A DNA stretch of 64,000 nucleotides from an uncultured beta proteobacterium (GCA_963750805.1 CAVVSV010000015.1:7468-71467), one strand, 5' to 3'. Shown: positions 13,960-58,428, counted from the stretch's first letter. Notes: generated by a model not told the origin, from the letters alone. Translations and numbers: made by a program.

Positions 13960-14137
13960 CGCCCGATTATTCCTGACGGTCTTTAAGGAATGCCGCTTTG
14001 CGCAAAATCAAACTTGGCACACCCCGGGGGATGGCAAATGCCTTCAAAGGCGCAAAATTGGCGTGTGAGCACCAAGGTGCTTCAGTGTGAATCTGCTAAC
14101 CTTTGCGCATTGTTTTTAAATCTCTGAAAGGGCCATC

Positions 14138-14458
14138 ATGTCGAGTTCAAGTCAATCCGGTGTCGCGTCGCAATCCCAATTGGTGACTGATATCAAGTCG
14201 GTGATTTCCGAGGCCGAAGAAATGCTCAGCGCCACCGCGGACCAGGTGGGCGAAAAAGCCGTCAAATTGCGTGAGCGCATCAAAATCCGCCTGGCCGATG
14301 CCAAAGTGCGTCTGGTGGAGGCCGAGGCCGTCTTGCTCGCCAAAACCAAAGCGGCTGCGCGCGCGACGGATGACTATGTGCACGAGTCCCCCTGGACGGC
14401 GATTGGCATTGCGGCCAGCGTGGGCCTGCTGGTGGGCCTGATCATCGGTCGTCGCTGA
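14138..14458 (+). CDS. DUF883 (ElaB/YqjD/YgaM-like) membrane-anchored protein
   Basis: 106 aa with a helical N-terminal part and a C-terminal TM anchor (AIGIAASVGLLVGLIIG). Confidence 0.7.
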   Translation: MSSSSQSGVASQSQLVTDIKSVISEAEEMLSATADQVGEKAVKLRERIKIRLADAKVRLVEAEAVLLAKTKAAARATDDYVHESPWTAIGIAASVGLLVGLIIGRR

Positions 14459-28500: not shown

Positions 28501-31500
28501 CAGGTTGCCGGTGATCTGCACCACGCCCGTGCCGCTTTGGTTGATATGACCCGTCTCAATGCCCGTGCGTGTGAAGTTGCCATCCAGGTTCAGCGTACCC
28601 CCACTGGCGTTGATGTTGCCGGTGTTGCTCCAGGAGGCCGTGCCGCTGGCGGCCTGGCCCAGATTGACCGTGCCAGCGCTGACATTGAAAACGCCCGTGG
28701 CACCGATGTTCATCGTGCCCACATTCCAGGTGCGCCCGGCCACACCAGCGGTGACCGTGCCATTGAGCGCGATGGTGTCCCCCGCGTAGTAGCCCAGGTA
28801 ACTGGTGCCCGTGGTGCTGCCCGAGATCGTGATGCCGCTGCCGATGGTCAGGGTCTGGGCGGTGTTGACGCCCCGCAGGTAGCTGGTCCCTGTGCTGCCA
28901 AAGACGATGTTGCCCGTGCCGGTGATGCTTTGCGTGGACTGGGAATCAAAGGCAGCATTGTTCAGCGTGATGGTGACGCCGTTCAGGTCCAACCCGCCGC
29001 TGTAATACGTCGTGCTGTTGACCTGCAGGTTGGTGCCCAGCTTCACACCCACAAGTTCCCCGCTGGAGCTGGTCAGACTGAAACCCGCGTTGGCGGTCAG
29101 CTCATTGCCCGCACCCCCGCCGGTGACAGCGTCATTGGCGCCGCCAGAGGCGATGTTCAAGCTGGTCAGCCCCAGGGTGCTGAGGTTCAACAGCCCCGCC
29201 TGCAGGTTCAGGTTGCCGGTGATCTGCACCACGCCCGTGCCGCTTTGGTTGATATGACCCGTCTCAATGCCCGTGCGTGTGAAGTTGCCATCCAGGTTCA
29301 GCGTACCCCCACTGGCGTTGATGTTGCCGGTGTTGCTCCAGGAGGCCGTGCCGCTGGCGGCCTGGCCCAGATTGACCGTGCCAGCGCTGACATTGAAAAC
29401 GCCCGTGGCACCGATGTTCATCGTGCCCACATTCCAGGTGCGCCCGGCCACACCAGCGGTGACCGTGCCATTGAGCGCGATGGTGTCCCCCGCGTAGTAG
29501 CCCAGGTAACTGGTGCCCGTGGTGCTGCCCGAGATCGTGATGCCGCTGCCGATGGTCAGGGTCTGGGCGGTGTTGACGCCCCGCAGGTAGCTGGTCCCTG
29601 TGCTGCCAAAGACGATGTTGCCCGTGCCGGTGATGCTTTGCGTGGACTGGGAATCAAAGGCAGCATTGTTCAGCGTGATGGTGACGCCGTTCAGGTCCAA
29701 CCCGCCGCTGTAATACGTCGTGCTGTTGACCTGCAGGTTGGTGCCCAGCTTCACACCCACAAGTTCCCCGCTGGAGCTGGTCAGACTGAAACCCGCGTTG
29801 GCGGTCAGCTCATTGCCCGCACCCCCGCCGGTGACAGCGTCATTGGCGCCGCCAGAGGCGATGTTCAAGCTGGTCAGCCCCAGGGTGCTGAGGTTCAACA
29901 GCCCCGCCTGCAGGTTCAGGTTGCCGGTGATCTGCACCACGCCCGTGCCGCTTTGGTTGATATGACCCGTCTCAATGCCCGTGCGTGTGAAGTTGCCATC
30001 CAGGTTCAGCGTACCCCCACTGGCGTTGATGTTGCCGGTGTTGCTCCAGGAGGCCGTGCCGCTGGCGGCCTGGCCCAGATTGACCGTGCCAGCGCTGACA
30101 TTGAAAACGCCCGTGGCACCGATGTTCATCGTGCCCACATTCCAGGTGCGCCCGGCCACACCAGCGGTGACCGTGCCATTGAGCGCGATGGTGTCCCCCG
30201 CGTAGTAGCCCAGGTAACTGGTGCCCGTGGTGCTGCCCGAGATCGTGATGCCGCTGCCGATGGTCAGGGTCTGGGCGGTGTTGACGCCCCGCAGGTAGCT
30301 GGTCCCTGTGCTGCCAAAGACGATGTTGCCCGTGCCGGTGATGCTTTGCGTGGACTGGGAATCAAAGGCAGCATTGTTCAGCGTGATGGTGACGCCGTTC
30401 AGTGTGAGGCCGCCCGTGTAGTTGGTGGTTCCGTTGACATTCAGATTGGTTGCCAAAACAACCTGGTTCAACGTGCCACTGGTGGTATTGAGCGTGGTTC
30501 CATTGCCACTGGAGATCGTCCCTCCCTTGAGTGCCAATGTGGCTGAAGAAGTGAGCGTGGCAGCCCCGCCACCGGTTGCATCTGAATTCGCGTTCAATAC
30601 CAGATTGAGCTTGCCCGTCCCTGTGGCACTGATGCTGGCGCTGATGTTGATGTTGTTGTGCGCCGACATCGTCAGTGAAACGTCACTGGCGCTGTTGGTG
30701 GTGATGGCACTGGACAGCGTGATGTCACCCGCCTGTGCGCCGCCTGCCGACGTGGTGATGGTCACATTGATGCCGGCATTCAGTGCGGCTTGAATGGTGG
30801 CCGTCGTGATGATGGCGGAATCAGCTGTGGTGGTGAAGTCAGGGTTGCCCGTGACATTGGTATCGCTGCCTGTCGCCTGAACAATCACGTTGTTGGGATC
30901 CAGCAACCACAGGCCCGCTTTGCCTTTGTGGCCATCGGCATACGTCCCTGCGGATGCGTCTGCAATCCAGCCGTCGGCGATGTTGAGCATGCGTTTGCCC
31001 GACGTTTCGATGCTGCCCCCATCGCCCCCCAGGGCGCCCCCTTTTGCCCCAATGCGCCCATATATTTGCGCAGTGTCATTGGCCCACACCACCACCAGGC
31101 CGCCATTGCCGCGCAAATCAGCATTGGCGTAAAGAGTGGCAGTTTTGGCGATGTAGGTGATGTTGCTGGTGATGATGTTGGGGTTGAGCCCCTGCCAGCC
31201 ACCGCCGACCATGATGGTGCCGCCGCCATTGGGCCCACTCGCATCCAGAACCGCCTCGTCGCCAACAACCACACGCCCCCGTGCGCTGACCCGGATGGTG
31301 CCGCCCACGCCGTAGCCTGCGCCTGAAGGCACAGGTGATGGCGAGGGTGAGGTTGGCCCGGCAGGTAGTGCGGGCACAAAAGGCTCAGGCCGGCCTGGGC
31401 TGTTCGCAGGGACAAGAGGCACCGACAAAGAATTGGCATCCACTGGTGCAGGAGCGGGCGTCACCGGGTCGATGGGGCCTGGTAACGCGTTGGCCTGCAA

Positions 31501-32622: not shown

Positions 32623-32667
32623 TCATTCCCTTCGCATGACGGTGCTTGCTTGCCCATGAACTTGCGA

Positions 32668-34269
32668 CTACTTGAACAGCCAGACCACACTGGCTTGCAG
32701 GCGCTGGTGCCCGGTTTGCGTACCACTGTTGCCCAAAACACCGTGGGTGGCAAAGCCCCAATCCAGGCGCAGACTCATCTGCCGGGCGTAATTGGCTCGC
32801 AAACCCAGCCCTGCGCCTGAAATGTTTTGCTCTGCAATTTCTCCCGGAGCCGGCTGGTTGCGCGAGACGTTCGCCGATTCCACAAACACCAGCGGCGTGA
32901 AGCGCCACTGGTCCACATCCACCGGCGGGGCCCAGACTTCCAGACCCAGGCGCCACCCCTGATCGCCGGCAATTTCGCGTTCTCCAAAGCCACGCACACT
33001 GTCGGTGCCGCCCACGCCAAATTGCTCGCTGGCAATCAGCAAATCCCGGCTGGACTGGCCCGACAAACCCAGCCGCACCGCCCACAATGAGGCCAGCCGC
33101 TGGGTCAATTGCAGGTTGTACTTGAGTGTCCTGAATTGCGCATCCGCCCCGGCGCGGCCACCTGGCAAGTTGTAGTCAGCCGTGTTGCCGTTGCGCCCGC
33201 CGGGCAGGTTGGCCACGTAGTTAGCGCCAAAGCTCAGGTCGCGTGTGTCGTCGCGCCAGGTGGCGTTGTAGCCCAGTGTCAATGGGCGGGTGGCGAGGTC
33301 AGGCACCAGGCTGGCACCACCCAGGGTGACGCTGTTGCCCATCATGCGCTGCTCCAGGCCCACGCTGAGCTTGTGGTTGAAATCCGCCGAGCTATCCAGA
33401 TTGTGGGTGTACCGCAGACCAAACGTCGTGCCACTGCCGCTGATTGCCAGATCCGGCCCGCCTCCTGCTTGTGCAATCTTCCCCGAATCGACACTCGACT
33501 GGCTGGCATTGATGTCCAGCGCCCCGCCCCACGCGTAAAGCGGAATACGGTATCCCAAGCCCAGCACCGACACCTGCTGCCAATGGCCCGGGCTGGACAT
33601 GATCTGCACAGACAGCGCATGGTCGCGGTTGAACAGATTGGCATGCTGGTACACCAGGCCCAACCGGTACTCGCCCGTCGCGGGCGTCCCTGTGTTGTCG
33701 AGCAAAGCCAGCCAACGCTGGGGGTCTTCGCCCACCACCTTCACAGCCACGTCCACATCCTGGTTGTTCGCGGCACGCTTGAATGTGACACTGGTGACTT
33801 TGGCGCCCGCCTCATTGGCCAGCGCCAGATTTCGATTGAGTTCCCCGGTATTGACCACTTCTCCTTCCACGAGGGCGGGCAGGGCGTGGCGTAGATTGGC
33901 TCCGTCATAAAAGGGATTGGCCTCCACCGTCACGTTGCCCAATTTGCCTTGCACGACTTGCAGCGTAACAACGCCGGAGTCCAGTTCCTGCTCGGGAACT
34001 TCCACCTTCACCGAGCCGTATCCAGCGTTGACATAGGCTTGCTCCAGCGCTTCTACCGCTCTTTGAATCGTTTCAAAATCACTGGAGGACCCGACATGCT
34101 GGGCAACAATGGTTTCCACCCGCTTGGGGTGCAGCAGGGTGTTGCCCAGGACCTTGTAGCCGGTGATGCTGAATTGGGTTTGAGCTTCACACAAAACGGG
34201 CGACAACACCAAAGCCAGCAGCGGTATGCTGCGAATCACAAGGGCAACCAGAAAACCAAAAAGCTTCAT
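32668..34269 (-). CDS. ShlB/FhaC/HecB-family TpsB outer-membrane transporter
   Basis: Signal peptide (MKLFGFLVALV...CEAQ), POTRA region and a beta-barrel, directly upstream of tpsA. The ORF is open to 34305. Confidence 0.85.
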   Translation of the reverse strand: MKLFGFLVALVIRSIPLLALVLSPVLCEAQTQFSITGYKVLGNTLLHPKRVETIVAQHVGSSSDFETIQRAVEALEQAYVNAGYGSVKVEVPEQELDSGVVTLQVVQGKLGNVTVEANPFYDGANLRHALPALVEGEVVNTGELNRNLALANEAGAKVTSVTFKRAANNQDVDVAVKVVGEDPQRWLALLDNTGTPATGEYRLGLVYQHANLFNRDHALSVQIMSSPGHWQQVSVLGLGYRIPLYAWGGALDINASQSSVDSGKIAQAGGGPDLAISGSGTTFGLRYTHNLDSSADFNHKLSVGLEQRMMGNSVTLGGASLVPDLATRPLTLGYNATWRDDTRDLSFGANYVANLPGGRNGNTADYNLPGGRAGADAQFRTLKYNLQLTQRLASLWAVRLGLSGQSSRDLLIASEQFGVGGTDSVRGFGEREIAGDQGWRLGLEVWAPPVDVDQWRFTPLVFVESANVSRNQPAPGEIAEQNISGAGLGLRANYARQMSLRLDWGFATHGVLGNSGTQTGHQRLQASVVWLFK

Positions 34270-34393
34270 GGGGCGGCATTCAGACCGGCAACAGCAGAGT
34301 TGCAATTTTAGGTGGCCCGCCTCCGGCGCGCTGTGGAGAATTACCCGGTTGTCAAACTACCTTGAACAAGGCCGACATTTGCTGTGCGGTTTT

Positions 34394-40677: not shown

Positions 40678-40789
40678 ATTGTTGCCCTTTGCGGGTTCAG
40701 TCGAAGTGCGCTTGCAACACATTCGTTACAGGTGATTCCCAAACTGTTCTCACCAGGGGTTGTTGATCGAAACGACTCGGAGAACGTTT

Positions 40790-41509
40790 ATGGAATTCAT
40801 GTCCGCCCCCTGGTGGTCAGCCCTGCTGGCCATTGTCCTGATTGACCTCGTACTCGCTGGCGACAACGCCATCGTGATTGCACTGGCGGCGCGCCATTTG
40901 CCCGACAAGCTCAAGCGAAAAGCCATTGTTTGGGGCACGGTCGGCGCCATTGCCGTGCGCTCAGTGATGACCCTGGCCGTCGTCTGGCTGCTGAAGATTC
41001 CCGGACTCATGCTTCTGGGAGGGATGGGATTGATCTGGATCGCCTACAAACTGCTCGCGGATGAAGGCGAAAGTGCACACGACGGGCCGGTCACCACCAC
41101 ATTTTGGGGTGCCATGAAAACAATTGTGGTCGCTGACGCCTTGATGGGTGTTGACAATGTGCTGGGTGTGGCGGGTGCCGCCCATGGCGCCATGGACCTT
41201 GTCATCATCGGCCTTCTGATCAGTGTGCCGATCGTCGTGCTGGGCAGTTCCGTGGTGCTGAAACTGGTGGAGCGATTTCCGGTGATCATTCAGCTGGGAG
41301 CCGCTGTGCTGGCCTTCACGGCAGCCAGCATGATCGTCAAAGAGCCTTTGCTTGACACGGTGTTTGACCCGCCTGAACTGGTGAACACCGTTGCGCGCTG
41401 GAGCACCTACGCTGTGGCAGTAGCGGGCGTCCTGATTGGAGGCTGGTGGGCTGGCAAACGCCAAGCCAACCAGGCCGACAGTACTTCGCGCGCCGGACAA
41501 ACAGTCTGA
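40790..41509 (+). CDS. TerC/YjbE-family integral membrane protein (putative Mn/metal exporter)
   Basis: LAGDNAIVIALAAR and MGVDNVLGVAGAA repeats typical of TerC. The ATG at 40790 is preceded by GGAGA. Confidence 0.8.
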   Translation: MEFMSAPWWSALLAIVLIDLVLAGDNAIVIALAARHLPDKLKRKAIVWGTVGAIAVRSVMTLAVVWLLKIPGLMLLGGMGLIWIAYKLLADEGESAHDGPVTTTFWGAMKTIVVADALMGVDNVLGVAGAAHGAMDLVIIGLLISVPIVVLGSSVVLKLVERFPVIIQLGAAVLAFTAASMIVKEPLLDTVFDPPELVNTVARWSTYAVAVAGVLIGGWWAGKRQANQADSTSRAGQTV

Positions 41510-44680: not shown

Positions 44681-46192
44681 TCACCCCGGGTTTTTCAGAA
44701 TCCATTTCGCGTAATCGGCCGGAAACGCGGCCTGAAGCCGCAGCAGGAAATATTTGGCCTCCTGGTCATGGCCCAACAACATAGCGCTTTCGATCAGCTT
44801 GATGGCAACCTTGGCCTCCGGAGAAAAATGCAAAAGCTCGTGGGCAATCTCGTTCAGATGTGAAGCGTTGTCTTGGGTGACAGCCGTTGTCGTCAACTCG
44901 GCAAACTTGATCTGATTTTGGAACAGCCATGAATCCTTGACCTTGTCGAAAGTGTCCTCGCGGTAGGCAGCATCGCGCATTTTGGGAATCATGTAAATCT
45001 GGCTGATGCGGTGATAGTCCCAACTTGCGTAGCCAATGCATGCTATGAATACAAAAGCAAACATACCAATAGTCACGCGGACTTGAGGCCAATATTTACC
45101 CCAATCAGGTTGCCAGAGAAGGGCTATGCACAAGCCGAAGGCAATTTGAAAAGGCCCGTACCACAGCGGGTACTCCACCATGCTGTGCAACAGAATGACT
45201 GCCATCACGCCCCATGCCATCTGCCGCGTGGCGTCTTGCTCCCGCCATGGTCTGGCGCGAAAAATCAACCACAGCCCGGTGCCGCAAATTAGTAGTGAAG
45301 CTGGCACACCCAGTTCAACGGCGAGATGCAAAGGCAGGTTGTGGGCATTGTCCAGAATGTCGCAAAACCGTTCGCCCGGGTACAGGGTGACAAAGTGGGC
45401 ATAGTCCAGATTGCCCCAGCCCCAACCCAGCCAGGGTTTTTGCGCGATGAGGTGGAGGACGTTGCTCCAAAGGACGAGGCGGCTGGCGCACTGGAGTGGT
45501 TTTTCTTTCATCCGGCCGAGGATGCCGCTGTCACCAAACCCCATTCCAGCCAAAAGTGGCAGGACAAGGGATGCCAGAAAGTAGGCGACAACAGCGACAA
45601 CCAACAGACTGCGAATGGTTTTGTGATTCAGCAAGCGCCAAACACCAAACAGGCAAACCACCAGAGCAAGTTGCAGGGTACCCGTGCGTGACGCCGAGGC
45701 TGAGTTGGCCGTCCCCAATATTGCTGCAGCAACGAGCAGTGTCGGCGTGGACATCATCGGTGGCATAGGTCCCGTGCTGAGTTGGTCGCCAGATTTCTGC
45801 CCCGCTTGGCTGGATTCGCGCCCGTCCGCGAACCAGATCAGTGCAGCAAGCCCAATGTTGATCAACGATGCAAAGAGATTGCGCTGGCGCAGATTGCCAT
45901 AGGCCATGCCTACTTCGGTACTGTTAACCCAGGGGCTGAATACCGCTGCTTCACCGAAGTACTGCAGAAGGCCAAACAATGCATTGAAAAGTGCAGCGGC
46001 CATCCAGGCCAAGGCAATAGCCGGTGTGTTGATCCTGGCACCGAATTGTATTTGCCAGCAACTCCACGCAGCCACAAATGCGCAACCACAAAACCACGAA
46101 AAAATAAGCGGATTGACGGCTGGAGAGGGACCTGGCGCAAAGGGGTTGAGCCACGGCAGCAAAAAAAGAAAAAAGACCAAAGAAAATGGCAT
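44681..46192 (-). CDS. PglL/Wzy_C-type O-oligosaccharyltransferase-like membrane protein (putative pilin glycosylation ligase)
   Basis: 503-aa multi-pass protein with an O-antigen-ligase-like core and the PWLNPFAPGPS N-terminus seen in PglL/PilO-type enzymes. It lies in the pilA gene string. Confidence 0.65.
   Translation of the reverse strand: MPFSLVFFLFLLPWLNPFAPGPSPAVNPLIFSWFCGCAFVAAWSCWQIQFGARINTPAIALAWMAAALFNALFGLLQYFGEAAVFSPWVNSTEVGMAYGNLRQRNLFASLINIGLAALIWFADGRESSQAGQKSGDQLSTGPMPPMMSTPTLLVAAAILGTANSASASRTGTLQLALVVCLFGVWRLLNHKTIRSLLVVAVVAYFLASLVLPLLAGMGFGDSGILGRMKEKPLQCASRLVLWSNVLHLIAQKPWLGWGWGNLDYAHFVTLYPGERFCDILDNAHNLPLHLAVELGVPASLLICGTGLWLIFRARPWREQDATRQMAWGVMAVILLHSMVEYPLWYGPFQIAFGLCIALLWQPDWGKYWPQVRVTIGMFAFVFIACIGYASWDYHRISQIYMIPKMRDAAYREDTFDKVKDSWLFQNQIKFAELTTTAVTQDNASHLNEIAHELLHFSPEAKVAIKLIESAMLLGHDQEAKYFLLRLQAAFPADYAKWILKNPG
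45042..45083 (+). repeat. dispersed tripartite motif, copy 11 (pglL-like gene, antisense)
   Basis: GCTAT GAATACAA AAGC AAACATACCAATAGTCAC GCGGACT, followed by TGAGG as in copy 13. Confidence 0.6.
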
Positions 46193-46211: not shown

Positions 46212-47867
46212 TCAGCGGATCTTGTCACACCCGCGTTTGGAGAAACTACAGCTGACCCGGTAATCTGCCTGGGCTTTCTTTGTTTCGCCCATCTTTTCAT
46301 AGGCCTGCGCGCGGCCGTATACATAGCGGGGACTCAACGATTTGCCAAGGGTCTGGGCCAGATCAATCGCTGCGGTGAATCCGTCGATGGCGTTCTTCCA
46401 GTCGTCTTTGTTGAAATACGCAGCGCCCAGATTGCCATACGCCTCAGGGAAATTCTTGTTCAAGGCAATGGCTTGTTTGAAATCCTTAACGGCTTGATCA
46501 GCATTGCCAAAGTTGAGCCATTCCGTGCCCCGGTTGTAATAGATCCGGTAAGCACCCGGAACGTCCTGGCGATCTTTGACCAGCTTTTCAGCATCGTCCC
46601 AAATAAACACAGGCTGCGAAAGCGTCATCAACCTCTCCATGGACACCAGAAACATGACCCCCGCAACCGGAATCAGGACCATACCCGCCACCCGCCCGTT
46701 AACTCGTGAAAGAACAACGGGAACTGCACAAAACGCACCCACCGCCCACAGGTAACTTCGGTAAAGCACAAAGACTTCCTGTGCACGCACTGACGACATC
46801 TCGGTAAAAAACATGAGCCATGGGAACACCATGGCGAAGCCCAACAGCCCGCGTTGTCCCCTTTGCCGCAGCAACCAGACTGCAACTGTTCCCCACGCTA
46901 GAAAACCGAGCCCTGCCAACAAGTAGGTTGAAAAAATTGCGGGTGCAAATGGCTCCCGCATGTCAATGGACATCCACACCGGGTTGGGGAATATCCACAA
47001 AAAAACGTACTTGAAAAAAAGCCAGCACTGCGTCAGCATGCTGAGTGGGTAAGCCAATTCACCTTCATTGGCCAGCATGGAGGCTGCGTCAATTTCGTAG
47101 ACCGATCCCAGCAAGCCTTTTCGGGTCAACACCACGGATACGGCAATCAGCGCGAGTGACGCAAAAATGGCCCAACGTTCTTTCATCTTGGCCAACCAGT
47201 CCGCGTGAATCAACACGGTCAGCGCCAGCAAAGCGGGCAGCAACATGATGGCGTGTTCTTTGCAGAAAACCGCCAGGTAATACAGGGGCACAGTGAGCCA
47301 AAGCCACACCAAGCGTTGTCGCGCACTGCCGTGAACATAAGCCAGCATGGTCAGCAAGCTGAACAAGGTTGCCATCACTGTGGTGCGTTGAACGAGGTAG
47401 CCAGCGGCATAGGTTGCGACGGGGTTGAGCGCAAAGAGAAGCGCCGCAAAAAAAGCGATCCAGGGGGACGACATGGCCTTGTCCAAAGGCTGGCGATGGC
47501 TGCCAATGCCCACAACTTTCATCATCGCGTAGAGAAAAAAATACAGCGCCACCACGACGGTCGCATGCAGCAGCAAACCTCCGAGGCGGAAGTTGATCAA
47601 ATCTAGGCCGAACCACGCCTTGGTCCAGGCCAGAGTGGCATAGGGGAGGGATCGCAACTCCAAAAAGTTGAATCGGTAGGACGACACGGGCTGAGTCCCC
47701 ATGTCGTCCAACATGAAGAAGTACATGTCGTCGAAGATGATCGGATTCCAAAGGAACTGCCCGTAGAGCGCGCCGATGGCCGATACCAGCAGCACACAGG
47801 CCACCCCAATTTTTCGTTGGATAGGGTTCAATTGGGTGTGATCTCCGCTTACGCTGTGGAAGTCCAA
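46212..47867 (-). CDS. multi-pass membrane protein with C-terminal TPR repeats (GT-C / PMT-TMTC-like)
   Basis: About 11 TM helices, an acidic DD motif in the first loop (IIFDDMYFF), and C-terminal TPR repeats (AYGNLGAAYFNKDDWKNAIDGF). The only in-frame start upstream of TM1 is the TTG at 47867. Confidence 0.65.
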   Translation of the reverse strand: MDFHSVSGDHTQLNPIQRKIGVACVLLVSAIGALYGQFLWNPIIFDDMYFFMLDDMGTQPVSSYRFNFLELRSLPYATLAWTKAWFGLDLINFRLGGLLLHATVVVALYFFLYAMMKVVGIGSHRQPLDKAMSSPWIAFFAALLFALNPVATYAAGYLVQRTTVMATLFSLLTMLAYVHGSARQRLVWLWLTVPLYYLAVFCKEHAIMLLPALLALTVLIHADWLAKMKERWAIFASLALIAVSVVLTRKGLLGSVYEIDAASMLANEGELAYPLSMLTQCWLFFKYVFLWIFPNPVWMSIDMREPFAPAIFSTYLLAGLGFLAWGTVAVWLLRQRGQRGLLGFAMVFPWLMFFTEMSSVRAQEVFVLYRSYLWAVGAFCAVPVVLSRVNGRVAGMVLIPVAGVMFLVSMERLMTLSQPVFIWDDAEKLVKDRQDVPGAYRIYYNRGTEWLNFGNADQAVKDFKQAIALNKNFPEAYGNLGAAYFNKDDWKNAIDGFTAAIDLAQTLGKSLSPRYVYGRAQAYEKMGETKKAQADYRVSCSFSKRGCDKIR

Positions 47868-47873: not shown

Positions 47874-47897
47874 ACAGGCCGCACTGAGGCGGCCTGT
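47874..47897 (-). terminator. rho-independent terminator after pilA
   Basis: On the minus strand: ACAGGCCGC-CUCAGU-GCGGCCUGU followed by UUCAUUUU. The stem is 9 bp and perfect. Confidence 0.7.
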
Positions 47898-47941: not shown

Positions 47942-48385
47942 TCAATTGTTCTTGTTGATAAGTTCAATGGCTGTTGCGTTGGTGACTGTGGTTGTGTTCG
48001 CCCAAGTCACATTGGACGTTCCTACATTTGGAGTGAAAGTAATAGTCTGTCCGTCAACGCCAGTACCAACACCGGTGGCAAATGTAACGGTAATGATGCC
48101 ACCAGTTGCGCCGCCAACTGTACCAGAGGCAAGTTCCTTAGTTGCGGTGAATGCTGGGATACCGCTAGATCCTGTAACACAACCCGTCAAAGTACCACCA
48201 GCTTCTTGCGCACACAGGCCAACTGCGGTCTTAAGCGAGGCCACGGATGACAAAGCTGCGCCAACTTTGGCCTTAATGATGTAGTTCTGGTATGCAGGCA
48301 GAGCCACAGCAGCCAGAATACCGATGATCGCAACAACGATCATCAACTCGATCAGGGTAAAACCCTTTTGCAGAGAACGTTTCAT
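47942..48385 (-). CDS. pilA: type IV major pilin
   Basis: The class III signal peptide and N-terminus ([35 protein letters not shown]) are diagnostic. AAGGAG lies 7 nt upstream of the ATG. Confidence 0.95.
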
Positions 48386-48433: not shown

Positions 48434-48449
48434 CGCAGATTCCGTGCCA
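48434..48449 (-). promoter_or_regulatory. sigma-54 (-24/-12) promoter candidate for pilA
   Basis: The minus strand reads CTGGCACGGAATCTGCG, against the consensus YTGGCACGR-N3-TTGCW. It lies about 50-65 nt upstream of the pilA ATG. Confidence 0.6.
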
Positions 48450-48562: not shown

Positions 48563-50983
48563 CTATTTGATGCAAACCTGCCGCACCATCTTGATGTCGG
48601 TCAGCCCCATCATGATTTTTTCCATGCCATCCATTTTCAGGGTACGCATGCCGCCTTCGACTGAAGCTGCAAAAATCTCGGCGACCCGCGCACGTTCCTG
48701 AATCAGCTTTTTGACGTCGTCATCGGCGATCAGCAACTCATGCAGACCAATCCGACCTTTGTACCCGGTCTTGTTGCACTTGTCGCAACCGACGTGGCGG
48801 AAAAACCGGAGTTCACCGTTTTGTCCATAGACGTTTCTCCAACTGTCTACCAATTTCCGGGTTTCTCCGTCGTAGTCCAGTTTCCAGGCTGCTGAGTGTT
48901 TGAGCTCTTCGGAGTACTCAGCAGCAAACAAGCGCAATTCTTCTGGGTCAGGTACATAAGACTCCTTGCAATCACAAAGCTTTTTGGCAAGACGCTGGGC
49001 CAGAATGCCCAACAAGGCATCGGCAAAGTTGAAAGGGTCCATGCCCATGTCGAGCAGTCGGGTAATGGACTCGGGGGCCGAGTTGGTATGCAGTGTAGAG
49101 AACACCAAGTGACCGGTCAGCGATGCTTCCACGCCCATGGAGACGGTTTCCTTGTCGCGCGACTCTCCCACCATGATGATGTCGGGGTCAGCCCGCAAAA
49201 AAGCCCTCATTACCAGTGCAAAGTCGATGCCAGCCTTCTTGTTGATCTGAACTTGTCGCAAGCCCTTTTGGGTGATTTCAACCGGGTCTTCTGCTGTCCA
49301 GATTTTGGTATCTGGCGTGTTCAGGTGCTTCAATATGGAGTGAAGCGTCGTGGTCTTACCGGAGCCGGTAGGTCCACACACATAGAACAATCCGTAGGGC
49401 TTTTCAATGGTGCTGACAACACGTTGTTTGTTATGTGGCGTCAGCCCCAACTTGTCCAGCGGAATGGGTTCACCAGCCGCCAGGATACGCATCACCACAT
49501 CCTCAACGCCACCCGCAGAAGGAATGGTTGCAACCCGAAGTTCAATGTCCAGTGGGCCATATCTTTTGAACTTGATCTTGCCGTCCTGTGGCTTGCGACG
49601 CTCGGAAATATCAAGGTCACACATGATTTTCAGGCGAGTCACCATCGCCTGTCTAAAATGTGACGGCACTTCGATATAGGGCATCAAAGTACCGTCAATC
49701 CGAAAGCGAATGCCAGTCTTGAGTTTGCCTGGCATTGGCTCAATGTGAATATCGGAAACCTTTTGGTTGTAGGCGTCAATGATTACCTTGTTGACGAATT
49801 TCACCAGTTCATTGTCTGCCGCTGCGGAGGCGAGCGAGTCATCATTGGAGCCATCGTCAATGGGCGCGCCGTCCATATCTGCGAGCATCTCATCGATGGA
49901 TCCACCCTCGACGCCTGCGCCAAACACCTGCCCCAGCGTTTCCTGAAACTCTGCCTGGGTTGTGACTCTGTAGGAAAACTTGGTGATCTTGGAGAAAACC
50001 TGCGGCACGATACGTGAGCCACGCACCGCCTCAGGATCAACACACATGATGACCAGGCCTTCAGGGGACTCCTCCAGGGGAAGCCAGCCATGCTCAACGA
50101 CAAAATCCCGTTTAAGTGGGCCGTGAAGCATTTCCGAGCGAATCCGACCAGCCGAAAATGGCTCGTAAGGAACCCCAAAAAACTTGGACAGCGACGGTCC
50201 AATTTGGGAAGGGCGCACCTTGTAGTTGGCCATCAGCGTGTATTCAACAGTTTGGCCAGCTTCACGGGCCTCCTGAACGCATTTCTGGAGCTCGTCGGAC
50301 GTGATGAATCCTTCAGATATCAGTCCATCGTATTTGGTCGCAACTTTTTTCTGACCGTCGTCTGCCTTTTGAACGCGTTGGCGAATGGCCGTCCCTAAAG
50401 TCTTGCAGAGCTGTGAAACGCCCTCGACTTCAAGGTCACTGAAGGGCTGATTTCCCTTGTTATTGATAACCTGAAGTACACCGTGGAGGGTGTCACCCTC
50501 CATGATGGGCGCAACCAGCATTTCCCGAGTGCGGTAACCTGAGCGCTTGTCAACTTCCTTCAGGAAAGTCAGCGATGGATGAATCCTCTTGAGCGCTTCA
50601 TCATCGTAAACATCTGAAAGATTGAGCAGTTTTTTGCTATAGGCCGCATAACCGGCAATGCTTTGAGGAGAAATAGGAAGTTTGAGATCGCGACTGCTGT
50701 TGAGTCCTGTCTTGATTTTCGAAACAATGGCCGTTTTGTCGTCGTTGACCGCGTAAAGCGTCAACCGGTCTGCATTGAAGAGCCGGCAAATGTCCTGGCT
50801 GGCCTCGAGCATGATTTGCTCAACATTGTCAGTCTCATGAATTCTTGCCGTGACTTGCTGGAGTTGGCGATAGAACAGCGCTTCAAATGTCATGCCGCGC
50901 TTGTCTGCGGGGAGTTTTTGAGAGTCCAAAAACGCTTGGTCCGGCTGCTTTTCTGCGCCTGGCGGTTTCATCACGGCATTCAT
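48563..50983 (-). CDS. GspE/PilB-family secretion ATPase with N-terminal GAF domain (GAF - T2SSE_N - ATPase), 806 aa
   Basis: A GAF-like region spans about aa 45-205 (...LTLYAVNDD...HGVLQVINNK). A T2SSE_N-like segment follows. The ATPase part has Walker A GPTGSGKTTT, Walker B IMVGESRD, the His box STLHTNSA and a C-terminal GCDKCNKTGYKGR. Confidence 0.85.
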   Translation of the reverse strand: MNAVMKPPGAEKQPDQAFLDSQKLPADKRGMTFEALFYRQLQQVTARIHETDNVEQIMLEASQDICRLFNADRLTLYAVNDDKTAIVSKIKTGLNSSRDLKLPISPQSIAGYAAYSKKLLNLSDVYDDEALKRIHPSLTFLKEVDKRSGYRTREMLVAPIMEGDTLHGVLQVINNKGNQPFSDLEVEGVSQLCKTLGTAIRQRVQKADDGQKKVATKYDGLISEGFITSDELQKCVQEAREAGQTVEYTLMANYKVRPSQIGPSLSKFFGVPYEPFSAGRIRSEMLHGPLKRDFVVEHGWLPLEESPEGLVIMCVDPEAVRGSRIVPQVFSKITKFSYRVTTQAEFQETLGQVFGAGVEGGSIDEMLADMDGAPIDDGSNDDSLASAAADNELVKFVNKVIIDAYNQKVSDIHIEPMPGKLKTGIRFRIDGTLMPYIEVPSHFRQAMVTRLKIMCDLDISERRKPQDGKIKFKRYGPLDIELRVATIPSAGGVEDVVMRILAAGEPIPLDKLGLTPHNKQRVVSTIEKPYGLFYVCGPTGSGKTTTLHSILKHLNTPDTKIWTAEDPVEITQKGLRQVQINKKAGIDFALVMRAFLRADPDIIMVGESRDKETVSMGVEASLTGHLVFSTLHTNSAPESITRLLDMGMDPFNFADALLGILAQRLAKKLCDCKESYVPDPEELRLFAAEYSEELKHSAAWKLDYDGETRKLVDSWRNVYGQNGELRFFRHVGCDKCNKTGYKGRIGLHELLIADDDVKKLIQERARVAEIFAASVEGGMRTLKMDGMEKIMMGLTDIKMVRQVCIK

Positions 50984-51771
50984 AGCTCAAATTCCTGGCC
51001 AGCGCGAAGCCAGCGAATGTCGTGCGTCACATTGGGGCCTGTAATGGCTGTTTCATCAAACTTTTGAATTTCCGCCATGATCAGCGCGGTTTCGGCGGGC
51101 TTGGTATGAGTGATGTAAATGGGATACCTGTTTTCACGCGATATGAAGTCCAGCTCGTTGGCCAGGACCACGGGCGACAAGTGAAGGCTCAGCTTGGCCA
51201 AATCTTTTTCTCGATTGCTGAATGCGGTTTCAATTACCAGCATCGCGACATTGAGTTCATTCACTCGGTTCCAAAATGCAGGATTACGCTCGGTATCGCC
51301 AGTGAAGACCCAGCAACCTGTGCCCGCCGTGACTGCATAACCGACAGCCGGGACGGTATGAACAGCGGGCAAAACTTCGATCAGCTTGCCTTTGAGTTCG
51401 AGGGTCTGGCCAGTTTTGATTTCGTGAAACGAAATAAACGGTGCCTCGGGCGTAGGAATCCGGCTGAAATCCGGCCAGATGACATTATTGAAGATATGGG
51501 CACGCAGCGCAGCAATGGTTCCAGCCAGCGCATGAATCTGAATAGGGGACGTTCGTCGCGAAGCAATTGCATCCACCATCAAAGGCAATGCGGCGACATG
51601 GTCTAGATGAGAGTGCGTCAAAAAAACCTGATTGATGCCACTCATTTCATCAAGTGTCAGATCTCCAACGCCTGTGCCCGCATCAATCAAAACGTCGCCG
51701 TCAATTAGAAAAGACGTGGTTCTGCAGTCTTTGGCAATGGCACCTGAACAACCCAGAACGCGAACCTTCAT
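50980..51771 (-). CDS. class-II-type 3',5'-cyclic-nucleotide phosphodiesterase (MBL fold)
   Basis: 263 aa with the H-x-H-L-D-H core (THSHLDHVAALP) and the MKVRVLGCSG start typical of PDEase_II proteins. Its stop overlaps the ATPase start (ATGA). Confidence 0.7.
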   Translation of the reverse strand: MKVRVLGCSGAIAKDCRTTSFLIDGDVLIDAGTGVGDLTLDEMSGINQVFLTHSHLDHVAALPLMVDAIASRRTSPIQIHALAGTIAALRAHIFNNVIWPDFSRIPTPEAPFISFHEIKTGQTLELKGKLIEVLPAVHTVPAVGYAVTAGTGCWVFTGDTERNPAFWNRVNELNVAMLVIETAFSNREKDLAKLSLHLSPVVLANELDFISRENRYPIYITHTKPAETALIMAEIQKFDETAITGPNVTHDIRWLRAGQEFEL

Positions 51772-51780
51772 CTCGATTCC

Positions 51781-54033
51781 CTATTTCGTTTCAAAGTTTG
51801 TTGCGCCGTCCCACTCAGGATCAAACGGCAACATTCGCATAGAGGCTACACGTTCCAGGTACAACTGGTAAAGGTACTTTTTGGCGTTCGTGCGGGTTAA
51901 GTTGATGAGCAGCACATCGGATTGATCCCAGTCTTGCTGCCGATAGGCCTTGATGAACGCAGACCAAGTCTTCAGTTCGGATGCAGATTCCGGCTCCAGT
52001 TCGCTGGTCAATGCCCTTGGGTAGAAAATTGCGACTGCTTGTTCCTTCCCCTTGACCCGAACCTTATCAAGTTCCTGCCAAGCAAATTCCGGTGCCAATT
52101 TTCTCGTGGATTCTGACACCACGATGTCAACACCGTACGCTTTTGAAAGCCCCTCAAGCCGTGAACCCAAATTCACTGCATCGCCAATTACCGTGTAACT
52201 GCGCCGGATGTTGGATCCCATGTCACCCACGCACATACTGCCAGTGTTGAGCCCTATGCCAATGCCAATTTCGGGAATGCCTTTGGCTCGGTGATCCTTG
52301 TTGATGGCACTGATTTCACGCGCCATTTCCATCGCCGCTTTCACCGCCAAGCTGGCGTGCTCAGAGGTTTCAACGGGTGCCCCCCAGAAGGCCATGACGC
52401 AATCACCCATGTACTTGTCAATGGTTCCCCTGTTCGCCCGAATCAAATTGGTCAATCGAGAAAACACGCCGTTGAGCAATTCCTGCAATTGGATGGGCTC
52501 CATTTGCTCGGACATTTTGGTGAACCCGCGCATGTCGCAAAACATCACGGTGAGCTCTTTATTGCTGGCCTTCATGCTGTAGCTGTCTGGGTCTTTGACC
52601 ATCTCGTCCACCAATTCTGGCGGAACATAAGTCCCAAAAAGGTTGGCCAACTCGCGTTTTGAGCGACTTTCAACAAAGTAGCCGTAGCTCATATTCAGTG
52701 CAAATGCCGCCACCGCCATGGTCAGCGATGATGCGAGTGGCAATACAAGCCCAAATGACAGATACATCCAGAAATTGAAAGCCACCAGAACAAACACCAC
52801 ACCTGCACTGAGCATCATGGCTCTAGACGCTGATAACAAGGGCAGGGCAATTGCCAATGTGAAACCAGCCAGCACAAGCATCACGACGTCATACCCTACA
52901 GCGTAGTCCGGTTTGACCAATACTTTTCCGTCCAGAAGACCGGAAATTACATTGGCGTGAGTTTCAACCCCCGGGTAAGTTTCTCCCACTGGCGTGACTC
53001 GCAAATCAACCAAACCTGGCGCGGTGGTACCCAGTAGTACGATCTTGTCTTTGAGAGCACCCGGTGCAACCCGTTTAGCCAGAACATCAGCAGCAGATAT
53101 ATATTTGAAAGACCCGGAATTGGCGCCCCCATAGCCGCGAAATGGCACCAAGGCGGATACCCTGTCATCCACTGGAATGGCCAGGGTCTTCTGCTCACCA
53201 AGTTTCAAAAGAATACTTTCCAACCCCTGGTAGTTGCGGCTCAGAAACCGCTCTTTGGGAAAGCCGGGCGACACAGTTGGCATGCCGATAACGGCCCGAA
53301 ACATGGCTAAGGACAATGACTCGTAGTACTGACCTTTGTACTCTGCGATCAAGGGTAGCGACCTGACCACGCCATCTGTTTCTGTGATCGAATTGAAAAA
53401 CCCCGCCAGAGGTGCCGCCTTGGCAAGCTGTGGAATATTGGACCCGTAACCGTTCCAGGACGTGAACCGAATGGGGCGACCCTGGACGGATTCCTTGGGC
53501 ATGACGGTAGTAGGTAGCACCCCCGACGAACGGCCATCCCTATCGCTGGTGAGGTAGTACCCCATGACCACTGGCTTCTTTTCAAGGGCTTTTGCAAACG
53601 TGGCATCGTAATCAAGCGAGCTCTGTAAATTCTGAAGCCGTTCGGCAAATCCAGGCTGATCACGAAGCTCGTTTTTAGCCAATTCGTTGAGCCGCTTCAG
53701 GCCGGAGCTATCGTCTGCTTCGGCAAAGACAACGTCAAAGCCAAGCAACGCAATCTTTTGATTGTCAAAAAGCTCACTGGTCAGGTCGCCCATTTTGTTG
53801 CGACCCCAAGGCCACCGGCCAACTTCAGCCAGGCTTTTTTCGTCAATGTCCACAATGACGATTCGCTCATCCAGAGTTTGGGGCATCGTGGCGCGCAGGC
53901 GCGCATCGTAAATGATGTCATCCAGACGCTGAAGGACGCCAATGTGGACAATGCCAACCGCATGCAAACTTGCAAACAGCAAGGGAAGCAACGTAATGGC
54001 GATGCGGGGCCAGTGTTTCAGAAGCGATTTCAT
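51781..54033 (-). CDS. CHASE2-domain class III adenylate/guanylate cyclase
   Basis: The order is N-terminal TM, periplasmic CHASE2-like domain, three TM helices, then a cyclase domain (FCDMRGFT, GDCVMAFWGAP, IGDAVNLGSRLE). Confidence 0.85.
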   Translation of the reverse strand: MKSLLKHWPRIAITLLPLLFASLHAVGIVHIGVLQRLDDIIYDARLRATMPQTLDERIVIVDIDEKSLAEVGRWPWGRNKMGDLTSELFDNQKIALLGFDVVFAEADDSSGLKRLNELAKNELRDQPGFAERLQNLQSSLDYDATFAKALEKKPVVMGYYLTSDRDGRSSGVLPTTVMPKESVQGRPIRFTSWNGYGSNIPQLAKAAPLAGFFNSITETDGVVRSLPLIAEYKGQYYESLSLAMFRAVIGMPTVSPGFPKERFLSRNYQGLESILLKLGEQKTLAIPVDDRVSALVPFRGYGGANSGSFKYISAADVLAKRVAPGALKDKIVLLGTTAPGLVDLRVTPVGETYPGVETHANVISGLLDGKVLVKPDYAVGYDVVMLVLAGFTLAIALPLLSASRAMMLSAGVVFVLVAFNFWMYLSFGLVLPLASSLTMAVAAFALNMSYGYFVESRSKRELANLFGTYVPPELVDEMVKDPDSYSMKASNKELTVMFCDMRGFTKMSEQMEPIQLQELLNGVFSRLTNLIRANRGTIDKYMGDCVMAFWGAPVETSEHASLAVKAAMEMAREISAINKDHRAKGIPEIGIGIGLNTGSMCVGDMGSNIRRSYTVIGDAVNLGSRLEGLSKAYGVDIVVSESTRKLAPEFAWQELDKVRVKGKEQAVAIFYPRALTSELEPESASELKTWSAFIKAYRQQDWDQSDVLLINLTRTNAKKYLYQLYLERVASMRMLPFDPEWDGATNFETK

Positions 54034-54096
54034 GAAGGCCCTGCAAAAATAAGCTTGAGTGCTCTGTCGGTGAGCCCAGCTCGGTCCGCTTATTGC

Positions 54097-54777
54097 CTAG
54101 ACAAGGACGAACTGCATTTGCGTACCTGCCAGTTCGATTAAATCGCCATTCTTAAGTGCAACGGGATCAACCCCAATGGGTGCACCGTTCAAAGTCGGGT
54201 TGCCCGCTCCCTCCACATGATGAACCACAAAGCCATGCTGGCGTCGGGTAATTGCTGCCACCGCCACACCAGGCTTTCCTACCGTTGTAACCACTTTTGT
54301 GAGCGGAACTTCCCGACCGGAAGCAGCGCCGGACAAGACTTTGATCGAAGCTTTTGAACCGGTTGCCATGACTGGCTCGGGTGCAGAATAGGCGGGCATT
54401 GAAGGCACGGGTGCGGGTGCTGCGGGCGCTGCCATGCCCGCCAACATTCCCGGTTTGACCATCATCGTTTTCTCGAAGCCTTGTTCAGCCGCTTCGTTGA
54501 CGTACTTGATTTTGTATTTGCCGACTTCTATAACGTCCGCGTTCTGTAGCAACTGTTTTTTGGCAGCCTTGCCATTGACGTAAGTGCCGTTGGTACTGTT
54601 CAAATCTTCCAGATAGACCTCGCTACCGGTCATTTGCAAAACCGCGTGCTCGCCACTCACGGCAAGATTGTCGATCACGATATCGTTATAGGGACGACGC
54701 CCAAGGGTGGTTCTGTCCTTGGTAAGTTGGACTTCCTTGATGACAACACCGTCAATCGACACGATCATTTTCGGCAT
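54097..54777 (-). CDS. FHA-domain protein (N-terminal FHA, Ala/Pro linker, second FHA-like C-terminal domain)
   Basis: TLGRRPYNDIVIDNLAVSGEHAVL...STNGTYVNG is a canonical FHA. The C-terminal 85 aa ends in ...LNGAPIG...GDLIELAGTQMQFV. Confidence 0.8.
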   Translation of the reverse strand: MPKMIVSIDGVVIKEVQLTKDRTTLGRRPYNDIVIDNLAVSGEHAVLQMTGSEVYLEDLNSTNGTYVNGKAAKKQLLQNADVIEVGKYKIKYVNEAAEQGFEKTMMVKPGMLAGMAAPAAPAPVPSMPAYSAPEPVMATGSKASIKVLSGAASGREVPLTKVVTTVGKPGVAVAAITRRQHGFVVHHVEGAGNPTLNGAPIGVDPVALKNGDLIELAGTQMQFVLV

Positions 54778-54825
54778 GACCGACTCCTGTTCCTGAAATT
54801 TTTGATTTGAAAACTCATAAAACTG

Positions 54826-55611
54826 CTATTTTCCAAGCAATCTGGATATTAAACCGCGTTTTTCACCCTCTGCTCCAGCCTGAACCATCAAGACCGTGAT
54901 GTTATCGCGACCCCCATGTTCATTCGCGGCCGCGACAAGACGTTCGGCTTTTTGATCCAATGAAATATCGGTCGCCAGAATACCCGCTATCTCTGCATCA
55001 TCCACCATGTCCGACAACCCGTCAGAGCACATCACATACAGGTCACCAGGTTCTACCTGATGTTCATTGAGCTCCAGCATAACAGCGTCTTCCACCCCCA
55101 ATGCCCGGGTTACCAAGTTCTTGTACGTGGAGGTCGCCGCTTGTTCAGGCGTAATCATGCCTGCATCGATCTGCTCTTGCAGCAGCGAATGGTCTTTGGT
55201 AATTTGCTCAAACTCGCCATGGCGCAACCGGTAGCACCTCGAATCTCCGATGTGGCCCAACATCAAGTTGGCGTCCTGAAATACCGCCACAATCAAAGTG
55301 GTGCCCATACCTGAATAGTGGGCATTGGAGTTCGCTGCATTGAAAATTGAGCGATTGGCGTTGTCGACACAAATCTCAAGGGCACGCCTTACTTCTTTTG
55401 TCTTGGCATTCCGGCCGGCCTCCGAGAGCCATCGTGCCATTTCGGACTTGATGAAGGCTGTTGCCATTCCACTGGCAATTTCACCAGCGTTATAGCCCCC
55501 CATTCCGTCAGCCAACACGCCCAATCGCGTCGCTTCATCAAAAGACGCAGCGTCTTCATTGTTGTCTCTGGCCCGGCCAGGGTCTGTTTTTGAGCAAAAC
55601 GTATAAATCAT
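54826..55611 (-). CDS. PP2C-family Ser/Thr protein phosphatase
   Basis: RARDNNEDA, DGMGG and GGRDNITV motifs. Confidence 0.9.
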   Translation of the reverse strand: MIYTFCSKTDPGRARDNNEDAASFDEATRLGVLADGMGGYNAGEIASGMATAFIKSEMARWLSEAGRNAKTKEVRRALEICVDNANRSIFNAANSNAHYSGMGTTLIVAVFQDANLMLGHIGDSRCYRLRHGEFEQITKDHSLLQEQIDAGMITPEQAATSTYKNLVTRALGVEDAVMLELNEHQVEPGDLYVMCSDGLSDMVDDAEIAGILATDISLDQKAERLVAAANEHGGRDNITVLMVQAGAEGEKRGLISRLLGK

Positions 55612-55623
55612 TGCGTCTTCTGT

Positions 55624-58428: not shown

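Follow-up and report, generated by a model that had tools for sequence, protein, structure and literature searches.

A conserved betaproteobacterial gene cassette associates cyclic-nucleotide and phospho-threonine signalling genes with a GAF-containing PilB/GspE-family ATPase

Introduction

Post-translational control of the motors that power type IV filaments is known mainly through cyclic di-GMP (c-di-GMP), by way of MshEN domains and of FimX/PilZ. Cyclic AMP (cAMP), to our knowledge, controls pili only through transcription. Examination of a 64,000-nucleotide (nt) stretch of DNA from an uncultured betaproteobacterium (GCA_963750805.1 CAVVSV010000015.1:7468-71467; hereafter the window) revealed a cassette of six genes, at 48563-58428 on the minus strand, in which a PilB/GspE-family ATPase stands beside genes predicted to make and hydrolyse a cyclic nucleoside monophosphate (cNMP) and to write, read and erase phospho-threonine. 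The original prediction, made from the sequence of the window, proposed that the two kinds of signal converge on the ATPase, and the present analysis follows it up.

Several described systems resemble parts of this cassette. Control of MshE/PilB-type ATPases by c-di-GMP through MshEN was reportedly described by Wang et al. in 2016 for Vibrio cholerae MshE and Thermus PilF. As in these proteins, an MshEN fold is present in the cassette ATPase, and a nucleotide messenger would be sensed by an N-terminal domain fused to a PilB/GspE-family motor; unlike them, the cassette ATPase lacks the RLG...Q motifs and adds a GAF domain of the cNMP type, and the predicted synthase and hydrolase of the messenger are encoded in the same cassette. 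The threonine phosphorylation pathway of the type VI secretion system (T6SS), PpkA-PppA-Fha1, is thought to act post-translationally. As in the cassette, a component of a secretion-type nanomachine is encoded together with a Hanks kinase of the membrane, a phosphatase of the PP2C type and an adaptor with an FHA domain, but the cassette holds no T6SS genes, its kinase has a CHASE2 sensor, its FHA protein has a second, degenerate FHA domain and fails the TagH/Fha model TIGR03354 (39 bits against a cut-off of 120.25), and the output would be a PilB/GspE ATPase. In the Pil-Chp/CyaB/Vfr system of Pseudomonas aeruginosa, a membrane class IIIb adenylate cyclase is likewise tied to type IV pilus biology; there, cAMP acts via the transcription factor Vfr and the sensor of CyaB is MASE2, whereas the cassette combines a CHASE2 cyclase sensor, a GAF domain of the cNMP type on the ATPase itself and a class II phosphodiesterase of the metallo-beta-lactamase (MBL) fold. 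Finally, class III CpaF proteins, Tad pilus ATPases found mostly in betaproteobacteria, carry a fused N-terminal FHA domain, the function of which was not tested in that study (PMC12019362). They too couple a phospho-threonine reader to a motor from the superfamily of type IV filaments, and they belong to the same class of bacteria, but the FHA protein of the cassette has two domains, is encoded apart from the neighbouring ATPase, which is of the PilB/GspE type, and is accompanied by a phosphatase, a kinase and a cAMP module.

The cassette is a member of none of these four systems; the signalling modules and the class of motor are both known, and what is new is their conserved combination. The claim that a convergence of cNMP and phospho-threonine signals on a GspE-family ATPase would be novel still stands, as no description of a GAF-bearing PilB/GspE protein with FHA and PP2C partners was found in the searchable full-text literature; a paper on MshEN and GAF in Leptospira proved to be unrelated to the cassette. 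If the reading developed below is correct, cAMP and eukaryote-like threonine phosphorylation would become direct inputs to a PilB/GspE-type motor, the two CHASE2 sensors would be given a cellular output, and a natural series of reduced forms, from six genes down to PP2C-FHA-ATPase, would allow each input to be dissected. Burkholderiales of fresh water and soil (Rhodoferax, Ramlibacter, Curvibacter, Caenimonas, Gallionella) carry the system widely, and it is testable, since it occurs in at least one cultured isolate, Caenimonas soli S4 (locus L078).

Results and Discussion

Organization of the cassette

From its upstream end, the cassette encodes a CHASE2-Ser/Thr kinase (55624-58428; 934 amino acids, aa), a PP2C phosphatase (54826-55611; 261 aa), a two-domain FHA protein (54097-54777; 226 aa), a predicted CHASE2-class IIIb adenylate cyclase (51781-54033; 750 aa), an MBL-fold class II cNMP phosphodiesterase (50980-51771; 263 aa) and the GAF-MshEN-PilB/GspE-family ATPase (48563-50983; 806 aa), all on the minus strand and assigned from the list of open reading frames (ORFs) and Pfam. 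Successive genes are separated by 12, 48, 63 and 9 nt, and the last pair shares a 4-nt ATGA overlap (read as CTATGAATG) in which the TGA stop of the phosphodiesterase gene overlaps the ATG of the ATPase gene; the arrangement suggests that these two genes are translationally coupled. The gene order, gaps, overlap and domains of the original prediction match the ORF list, Pfam and NCBIfam exactly, and its logic of a writer, an eraser and a reader for each signal is borne out at the domain level by Pfam. The arrangement is not a product of chance, because it recurs in dozens of genomes.

The sequences TTGTCG and TAACGT, 17 nt apart (58524..58552, minus strand; about 96 nt 5' of the kinase start codon), are the sole blocks kept in at least 80% of 40 aligned regions upstream of the kinase gene, and they form a plausible candidate for a sigma-70-type promoter of the cassette. 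A scan with the sigma-70 consensus gave no enrichment, 4 sites being observed against 8.2 expected. Since no terminator-like hairpin was found within any intergenic gap inside the cassette and a conserved promoter-like element stands only before the first gene, the six genes look like a single transcription unit. A perfect 9-bp inverted repeat (AACACCTTG, 14 nt, CAAGGTGTT; 58479-58510, minus strand), located between the promoter-like element and the kinase start codon, was considered as an operator and dropped, as it is unconserved in 39 related loci. Rfam detected no RNA family anywhere in the window.

Conservation across genomes

Hundreds of relatives of the ATPase are found at 83-100% identity, those named belonging to Rhodoferax. 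A scan of one genome per species recovered a GAF+MshEN relative in at least 570 genomes; the query was an alignment of six GAF+MshEN sequences, a 14-sequence N-terminal alignment being too divergent. The best 80 of these genomes are all Comamonadaceae (Rhodoferax, Ramlibacter, Curvibacter, Caenimonas). Their neighbouring genes were identified by tblastn with the proteins of the window, and the upstream edge could be read in 63 loci. In these bounded loci the site is constant, in the order sucCD-TerC-cassette-ATPase, and pilA, PglL and MoaC genes lie downstream of the ATPase in most Comamonadaceae loci.

The gene content of the 63 loci is variable. The full six-gene cassette, with kinase, PP2C, FHA protein, cyclase and phosphodiesterase before the ATPase, is present in 30 of them, and 15 have only PP2C and FHA genes. 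Intermediate forms are kinase-PP2C-FHA-phosphodiesterase (7 loci), kinase-PP2C-FHA (6 loci) and PP2C-FHA-phosphodiesterase (2 loci), and the remaining category, a cyclase without phosphodiesterase, accounts for 3/63. The conserved unit is PP2C-FHA-ATPase, and the kinase, cyclase and phosphodiesterase are dispensable accessories. The idea of a six-gene unit survives for this core (PP2C in 63/63 loci, FHA in 62/63) and fails for the three accessories, which occur all together only in the loci with the full cassette (kinase in 44/63, cyclase in 33/63). On a similarity tree of the ATPase the reduced forms lie scattered among the others, a pattern that points to repeated loss.

The cassette was also recognized, in the same order, in six distant betaproteobacterial contigs, one of them a Gallionella metagenome-assembled genome, in which the GAF and MshEN domains of the ATPase are 45-51% identical to those of the window protein. 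All six genes are present in L084, L085 and L086, the cyclase is missing from L168, and no kinase is found in the readable stretch of L169 and L170, the upstream edge of L170 being cut; PP2C occurs in all six. Because these contigs share the same gene order, the full cassette is probably ancestral in Burkholderiales sensu lato. The expectation that the cassette would be co-conserved elsewhere is supported by these contigs together with the 63 Comamonadaceae loci.

The GAF-MshEN-ATPase architecture itself is old and broad, with 202 clusters at 50% identity (E < 1e-30), some of which have two or three GAF domains. In a distant clade of GAF-ATPases, about 45% identical, the ATPase gene is an orphan amid Maf, TatD, Asd, YchF and TilS-type genes, and in none of 80 metagenomic loci is it flanked by a gene for a kinase, PP2C, FHA, cyclase or MBL protein. 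A Desulfobacterales locus likewise has none of the cassette genes beside the ATPase. On a sediment contig (L136), the GAF-MshEN-ATPase gene is directly followed by a second ATPase gene (7576-9828) of MshEN-T2SSE-cNMP_binding architecture, the product of which carries a C-terminal cyclic-nucleotide domain of the CAP type, so fusions of cNMP sensors to such motors recur.

The ATPase

Pfam assigns to the ATPase a GAF domain (44.7 bits), an MshEN domain (34.6 bits) and a T2SSE domain (372 bits). The GAF domain covers approximately residues 54-200 (nt 50384-50824) and is followed by a linker helix (residues 183-211 in the AlphaFold2 model), the MshEN/N1 domain (PF05157; approximately residues 215-357, nt 49913-50341) and the ATPase core (residues 389-800, nt 48584-49819; Pfam and NCBIfam), all on the minus strand. 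An AlphaFold2 model of residues 1-395, with a mean predicted local distance difference test score (pLDDT) of 79, consists of the GAF domain, a long helix and the MshEN domain, the last modelled with a pLDDT around 90.

Compared with all solved structures, the profile of the GAF family matched Anabaena CyaB2 first (E = 1.6e-42), and the phosphodiesterases PDE5, PDE10, PDE2 and PDE6 next (E = 1e-26 to 1e-20). The GAF of the HD-GYP protein PmGH (4MCW) was also matched (E = 1.5e-23). Scores against the GAFs of PtsP (about 4e-7 to 5e-6) and those of phytochrome or cyanobacteriochrome type (about 7e-11 to 1e-3) were far weaker. The GAF region, for which failure in profile searches had been named as part of a refutation of the original prediction, therefore passes such searches strongly, and its closest solved relatives place it in the cNMP-binding type, from which binding itself is predicted. 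Like CyaB1/CyaB2 and PDE2/5/6/10, the ATPase has a GAF followed by a predicted long signalling helix; unlike them, its output is a hexameric secretion-type ATPase, it has a single GAF in this clade and it keeps the NKFDE signature, N-K-x(n)-F-x3-D-E, in part. The core of the domain, VDKRSGYRT, is at least 95% conserved in every type of cassette.

The presence of an MshEN fold is supported by the Pfam score, against a cut-off of 23.1, and by the N-terminal domains of PilF, PilB and MshE among the solved relatives. MshEN domains that bind c-di-GMP have two copies of the motif RLGxx(L/V/I)(L/V/I)xxG(L/V/I)(L/V/I)xxxxLxxxLxxQ. At the PilF-aligned sites the window protein reads TKYD-GLISEGFI...QEAR and TVEY-TLMANYKV; the Arg, Gly and Gln positions are lost and the family consensus is KYDxLV. 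The notion that the T2SSE_N region might sense c-di-GMP is accordingly not upheld, the MshEN domain being without the c-di-GMP-binding motifs.

The boxes expected of a motor ATPase are intact. Walker A (GPTGSGKTTT), the Asp box, Walker B, the His box and a tetracysteine zinc motif (four Cys, CDC...CDKC) were all found in the sequence, which also reads DIIMVGESRD and LTGHLVFSTLHTN among these boxes. The protein aligns along its whole core with PilF, PilB and EpsE, and the Cys pairs are separated by an insertion of about 37 aa. It does not reach the PilB equivalog TIGR02538 (464.4 bits against a cut-off of 675.65) or the GspE model TIGR02533 (432.6 bits against 630.25), and public annotations of its orthologues read only 'GspE/PulE family' or 'T2SS/T4P/T4SS family'. 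With scores below both cut-offs and no adjoining pilC or pilD gene, it is probably not the ordinary PilB of a canonical pil cluster, the outcome that would have counted against the original prediction.

Genes for cyclic-nucleotide metabolism

The cyclase combines a CHASE2 domain (Pfam, 181 bits) with a Guanylate_cyc domain (PF00211, 95 bits), and among solved structures P. aeruginosa CyaB (3R5G, E = 3.9e-32) is its nearest relative, with the catalytic residues of which its own align. The metal-binding Asp500 and Asp544, the substrate-defining Lys540 and Thr614 and the transition-state Asn621 and Arg625 are at least 95% conserved among 43 orthologues. Since the Lys/Thr pair is that of class IIIb adenylate cyclases, the cyclase probably makes cAMP as a class IIIb enzyme. 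Of the cAMP or cGMP input originally put forward, the cAMP part is retained, on the strength of this pair and of the match to CyaB, and cGMP is not predicted.

The phosphodiesterase matches PDEase_II (PF02112) with 47.5 bits, against a cut-off of 23.7, and Lactamase_B_2 as well. It contains HSHLDH, corresponding to the class II signature H-x-H-L-D-H, and the solved structure that it matches best is that of yeast PDE1 (4OJV, E = 1.5e-8). As only positions 82-145 of the 340 of the profile align, it is a short and divergent member of PF02112. Its orthologues also bear precomputed matches to PF23023, the Apyc1 family.

Related cassettes contain further genes with cNMP-type domains. A gene coding for a cNMP_binding-rhodanese protein lies between the phosphodiesterase and ATPase genes in L084 (8824-9909), L085 (8879-9973) and L169 (8742-9824), and L170 has a Pkinase-cNMP_binding fusion followed by a rhodanese gene (12525-14163). 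The fusion and the insertions give hints of direct cross-talk between cNMP and phospho-signalling and of an output of the sulfur-transfer type. A gene for a GAF-HD protein (HD_5/HD-GYP-like) comes directly after the ATPase gene in L084 (12389-14011), L086 (12388-14064) and L170 (8126-9759); such a protein is seen in cassettes from outside the Comamonadaceae and none is encoded in the window. With these additional proteins of the relatives, the ATPase is not the only predicted cNMP reader in the family, and the original prediction is corrected on this point.

Genes for phospho-threonine signalling

The kinase carries CHASE2 (166 bits) and Pkinase (187 bits) domains. A transmembrane helix at the N-terminus leads into the CHASE2 domain, which is periplasmic; three more transmembrane helices follow, then a juxtamembrane segment that is conserved, the kinase domain (residues 577-830) and a Ser/Thr/Pro-rich, unconserved C-terminal tail. 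The motifs GxGxxG, VAIK, HRD, DFG and SPE are all present. Thr733, Thr738, Thr740 and Thr746 of the activation loop and the juxtamembrane Thr471 are at least 90% conserved, and these residues are candidates for FHA docking. The phosphatase matches PP2C_2 in Pfam (58.5 bits) and exceeds the equivalog cut-off of the NCBIfam Stp1/IreP model (250.6 bits against 230); its metal-binding motifs NED, DGMGG, SDG and GGxDN are conserved. Judged by their sequences, both enzymes keep all catalytic motifs, and the phosphatase looks active.

The FHA protein has a canonical FHA domain at residues 1-95 (Pfam FHA, 80.6 bits), joined by an Ala/Pro-rich linker to a second, FHA-like domain (residues 140-226), which is conserved and degenerate and is without the phosphothreonine-binding loop GR...SxxH. 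Both domains are highly conserved, and hhalign related the N-terminal domain to the C-terminal one with a probability of 87.6% (E = 3.5e-6). The AlphaFold2 model is of low confidence (pLDDT 58), the C-terminal domain being better modelled, and for that reason the Foldseek result, in which all matches are FHA domains, indicates the FHA fold only. A homologue search with this protein gave close orthologues only and no distant contexts.

Proposed mechanism and alternative explanations

Our preferred reading, held with reasonable though not strong confidence, is that the genes form a modular control cassette for a paralogous PilB/GspE-family ATPase of Burkholderiales which most likely acts on type IVa pilus machinery. 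The two periplasmic CHASE2 sensors would turn envelope or extracellular cues into cAMP synthesis and threonine phosphorylation. The cAMP, trimmed by the co-translated phosphodiesterase, would bind the GAF domain of the ATPase, and the signal would travel along the GAF-MshEN helix to change how active the hexameric motor is or how it docks to the platform. The FHA protein would read phospho-threonine that PP2C erases and that the CHASE2 kinase or, where the cassette is reduced, a kinase from another locus writes, and its degenerate second FHA-like domain may tether or release the ATPase. The ATPase would integrate both inputs and decide when pilus assembly gets power, and pilA would be expressed on its own, by means of a sigma-54-type promoter. 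That the cAMP and phospho-threonine signals converge on the ATPase is what the co-conservation of the genes leads us to infer.

The ATPase would be a regulated paralogue of the PilB type. Two reports from the Comamonadaceae bear on this. In Ramlibacter, a single type IV pilus machinery is accompanied by three PilB paralogues (PMC3164672), and the pili of Verminephrobacter depend on a separate pilB-pilC pair of the canonical kind (PMC4212676). A more specific version, which we put forward only tentatively, makes the ATPase a direct coincidence detector, in which binding of cAMP to the GAF and phospho-threonine-dependent docking or release of the FHA protein would together turn a dedicated PilB paralogue on or off at a common type IV pilus base. 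If so, two CHASE2 surface sensors would time pilus extension within seconds and without transcription, and the PilB/GspE family would gain its first motor gated by cAMP and its first gated by a Ser/Thr kinase.

Several observations weigh against the preferred reading. The NKFDE signature is only partly kept in the GAF domain of the window (NNKGNQPFSDLEVE: N, K and F are present and D-E is displaced); F-x3-D-E is exact in several distant members of the ATPase family. Foldseek with the GAF-MshEN model gave matches to GAFs from more than one ligand class, and the ligand can therefore not be told from the fold. No conserved Thr stands out in the N-terminal extension or the linker of the ATPase, Thr32 being unconserved. 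The two-input logic cannot be obligatory, because many genomes do without the kinase, many without the cyclase and many without the phosphodiesterase. In its C-terminal half the ATPase resembles PilF, PilB and EpsE (the GspE type) to about the same degree and is far from PilT. Lastly, 20 of 66 related loci have no pilin gene within 700 nt past the ATPase, and in about 13 of these 20 there is none within 8-10 kb; unrelated housekeeping genes follow the ATPase in L033 and L043.

Part of this evidence could be accommodated if cAMP controlled pili through transcription, by a CRP/Vfr-type or other cNMP-binding reader, and the GAF bound another ligand or were structural. The similarity of the cyclase to P. 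aeruginosa CyaB, the separate cNMP_binding proteins in the cassettes of relatives, the persistence of an unchanged GAF where cyclase and phosphodiesterase are absent and the unspecific fold search all agree with this explanation, which we nevertheless judge unlikely: the fit of the GAF profile to cNMP-binding GAFs exceeds that to other classes by 15 to 35 orders of magnitude, the phosphodiesterase gene overlaps the start codon of the ATPase, Pfam finds no CRP-type regulator in the cassette of the window, and in reduced cassettes the GAF could still be supplied with cAMP made at other sites in the cell. An equally doubtful possibility is that the phospho-threonine module acts on another target, such as the cyclase, pilin glycosylation, the envelope or central metabolism, and is merely syntenic with the ATPase. 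Vertical inheritance could explain such synteny in Comamonadaceae, where the position between sucCD-TerC and MoaC is fixed; the lack of a candidate phospho-site in the ATPase also fits, as does the finding that in NCBIfam the FHA domain comes closest to proteins of the OdhI/GarA and FhaB/FipA types, which regulate other processes. Yet PP2C-FHA-ATPase adjacency holds in six lineages, among which the left flank differs in L086 and L169 and the right flank in several, it outlives repeated loss of every other cassette gene, and the PP2C-FHA pair is missing from every ATPase locus of the distant clade.

The ATPase might instead power a fibre other than a type IVa pilus, for example a type II secretion-like pseudopilus or a competence pilus, its proximity to pilA being incidental. 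Its undecided similarity to GspE and PilB, the separate promoter of pilA, the loci in which no pilin gene adjoins it and the orphan ATPase among housekeeping genes in the distant clade are in favour of this explanation. We regard it as improbable, more so than the two preceding ones, given that a pilA or other pilin gene follows the ATPase in 46 of the 66 Comamonadaceae loci (about 70%) and in L084 and L170, that a pilin gene is nearby on the opposite strand in L086, that no gsp genes are near, and that several PilB paralogues per type IV pilus machine have been reported for Comamonadaceae (PMC3164672). Least probable of all is an anti-phage defence system, in which a Pycsar-like cyclase and a PD-T4-6-like kinase would act with the MBL enzyme as an Apyc1-like regulator. 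PADLOC matches the kinase to PD-T4-6 (330 bits) and the cyclase domain to PycC (108 bits), the MBL orthologues match Pfam Anti-Pycsar_Apyc1, and G+C content is lower than in the flanks; the PADLOC matches, however, are generic and at the level of fold, the cyclase retains the Lys/Thr pair of adenylate cyclases and is membrane-anchored by CHASE2, no gene for a Pycsar effector is present, and the site is fixed beside housekeeping genes in dozens of species, not a variable defence island. On these grounds the defence reading was rejected.

pilA and downstream genes

The gene for the major type IVa prepilin PilA (47942-48385, minus strand; 147 aa; Pfam Pilin and N_methyl) begins 177 nt after the ATPase gene. 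A six-frame motif scan of the window detected no second prepilin N-terminus, in agreement with the statement that pilA is the only fibre component nearby, and PilA is the probable fibre substrate of the machinery. A sigma-54-type -24/-12 element, TGGCACGGAATCTGC (48435..48449, minus strand), precedes the gene, and of the 46 related loci with a pilin gene after the ATPase, 42 have the same motif at a distance of 70 to 105 nt on the upstream side of the prepilin motif. From this conservation we infer that pilA is transcribed separately, from its own sigma-54-type promoter. The bare pattern TGGCAC-N5-YTGC is not rare in the window (2 found against 1.1 expected); the other exact match (10755-10769, minus strand) is inside or near a gene for an EamA-family transporter and is probably due to chance.

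The only convincing intrinsic terminator-like hairpin follows pilA (47874..47897, minus strand), with a 9-bp stem including 7 G-C pairs and a T-rich tail. Beyond it, on the same strand, are genes coding for a 551-aa TPR protein (46212-47867), with repeats of Pfam TPR families at its C-terminus and an N-terminal region of about 430 aa without assignment, and for an O-oligosaccharyltransferase of the PglL/Wzy_C type (44681-46192; Pfam Wzy_C_2, Wzy_C and PglL_A). Both genes probably serve pilin glycosylation. In related loci pilA is followed by one or two PglL-like genes, or by TPR-Glyco_transf_41 instead, and the pilin-glycosylation module appears to vary between relatives.

The wider window

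Among the ORFs of the window scanned with Pfam, those of at least 140 aa judged to be likely genes, no platform protein (pilC/gspF), secretin or prepilin peptidase was found, as the original prediction had noted. No pilC or pilD gene occurs within the 64-kb window or within 10 kb in related loci, and neither gsp genes nor T6SS genes were found in the window.

Upstream of the cassette are the genes TerC, sucDC, recX and recA. The window contains two TerC-family genes, at 40760-41509 and at 58615-59364, the latter immediately upstream of the cassette; a TerC gene also precedes the cassette in L084, L085 and L168, distant lineages with a matching left flank. G+C content falls from about 0.60 to 0.51-0.54 over 44-60 kb, a segment that includes the glycosylation genes, pilA and the whole cassette. 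The chromosomal site is nonetheless fixed in dozens of species, and the drop could go back to an acquisition long ago or to a constraint on composition.

The rest of the window consists of housekeeping genes and a two-partner secretion cluster (18131-34305, minus strand). This cluster encodes a TpsB transporter of the ShlB/FhaC type (32668-34305), a FecR-domain protein (18131-19576) and, in an ORF of 4351 aa (19567-32622), a protein with an N-terminal two-partner secretion domain and otherwise no Pfam match.

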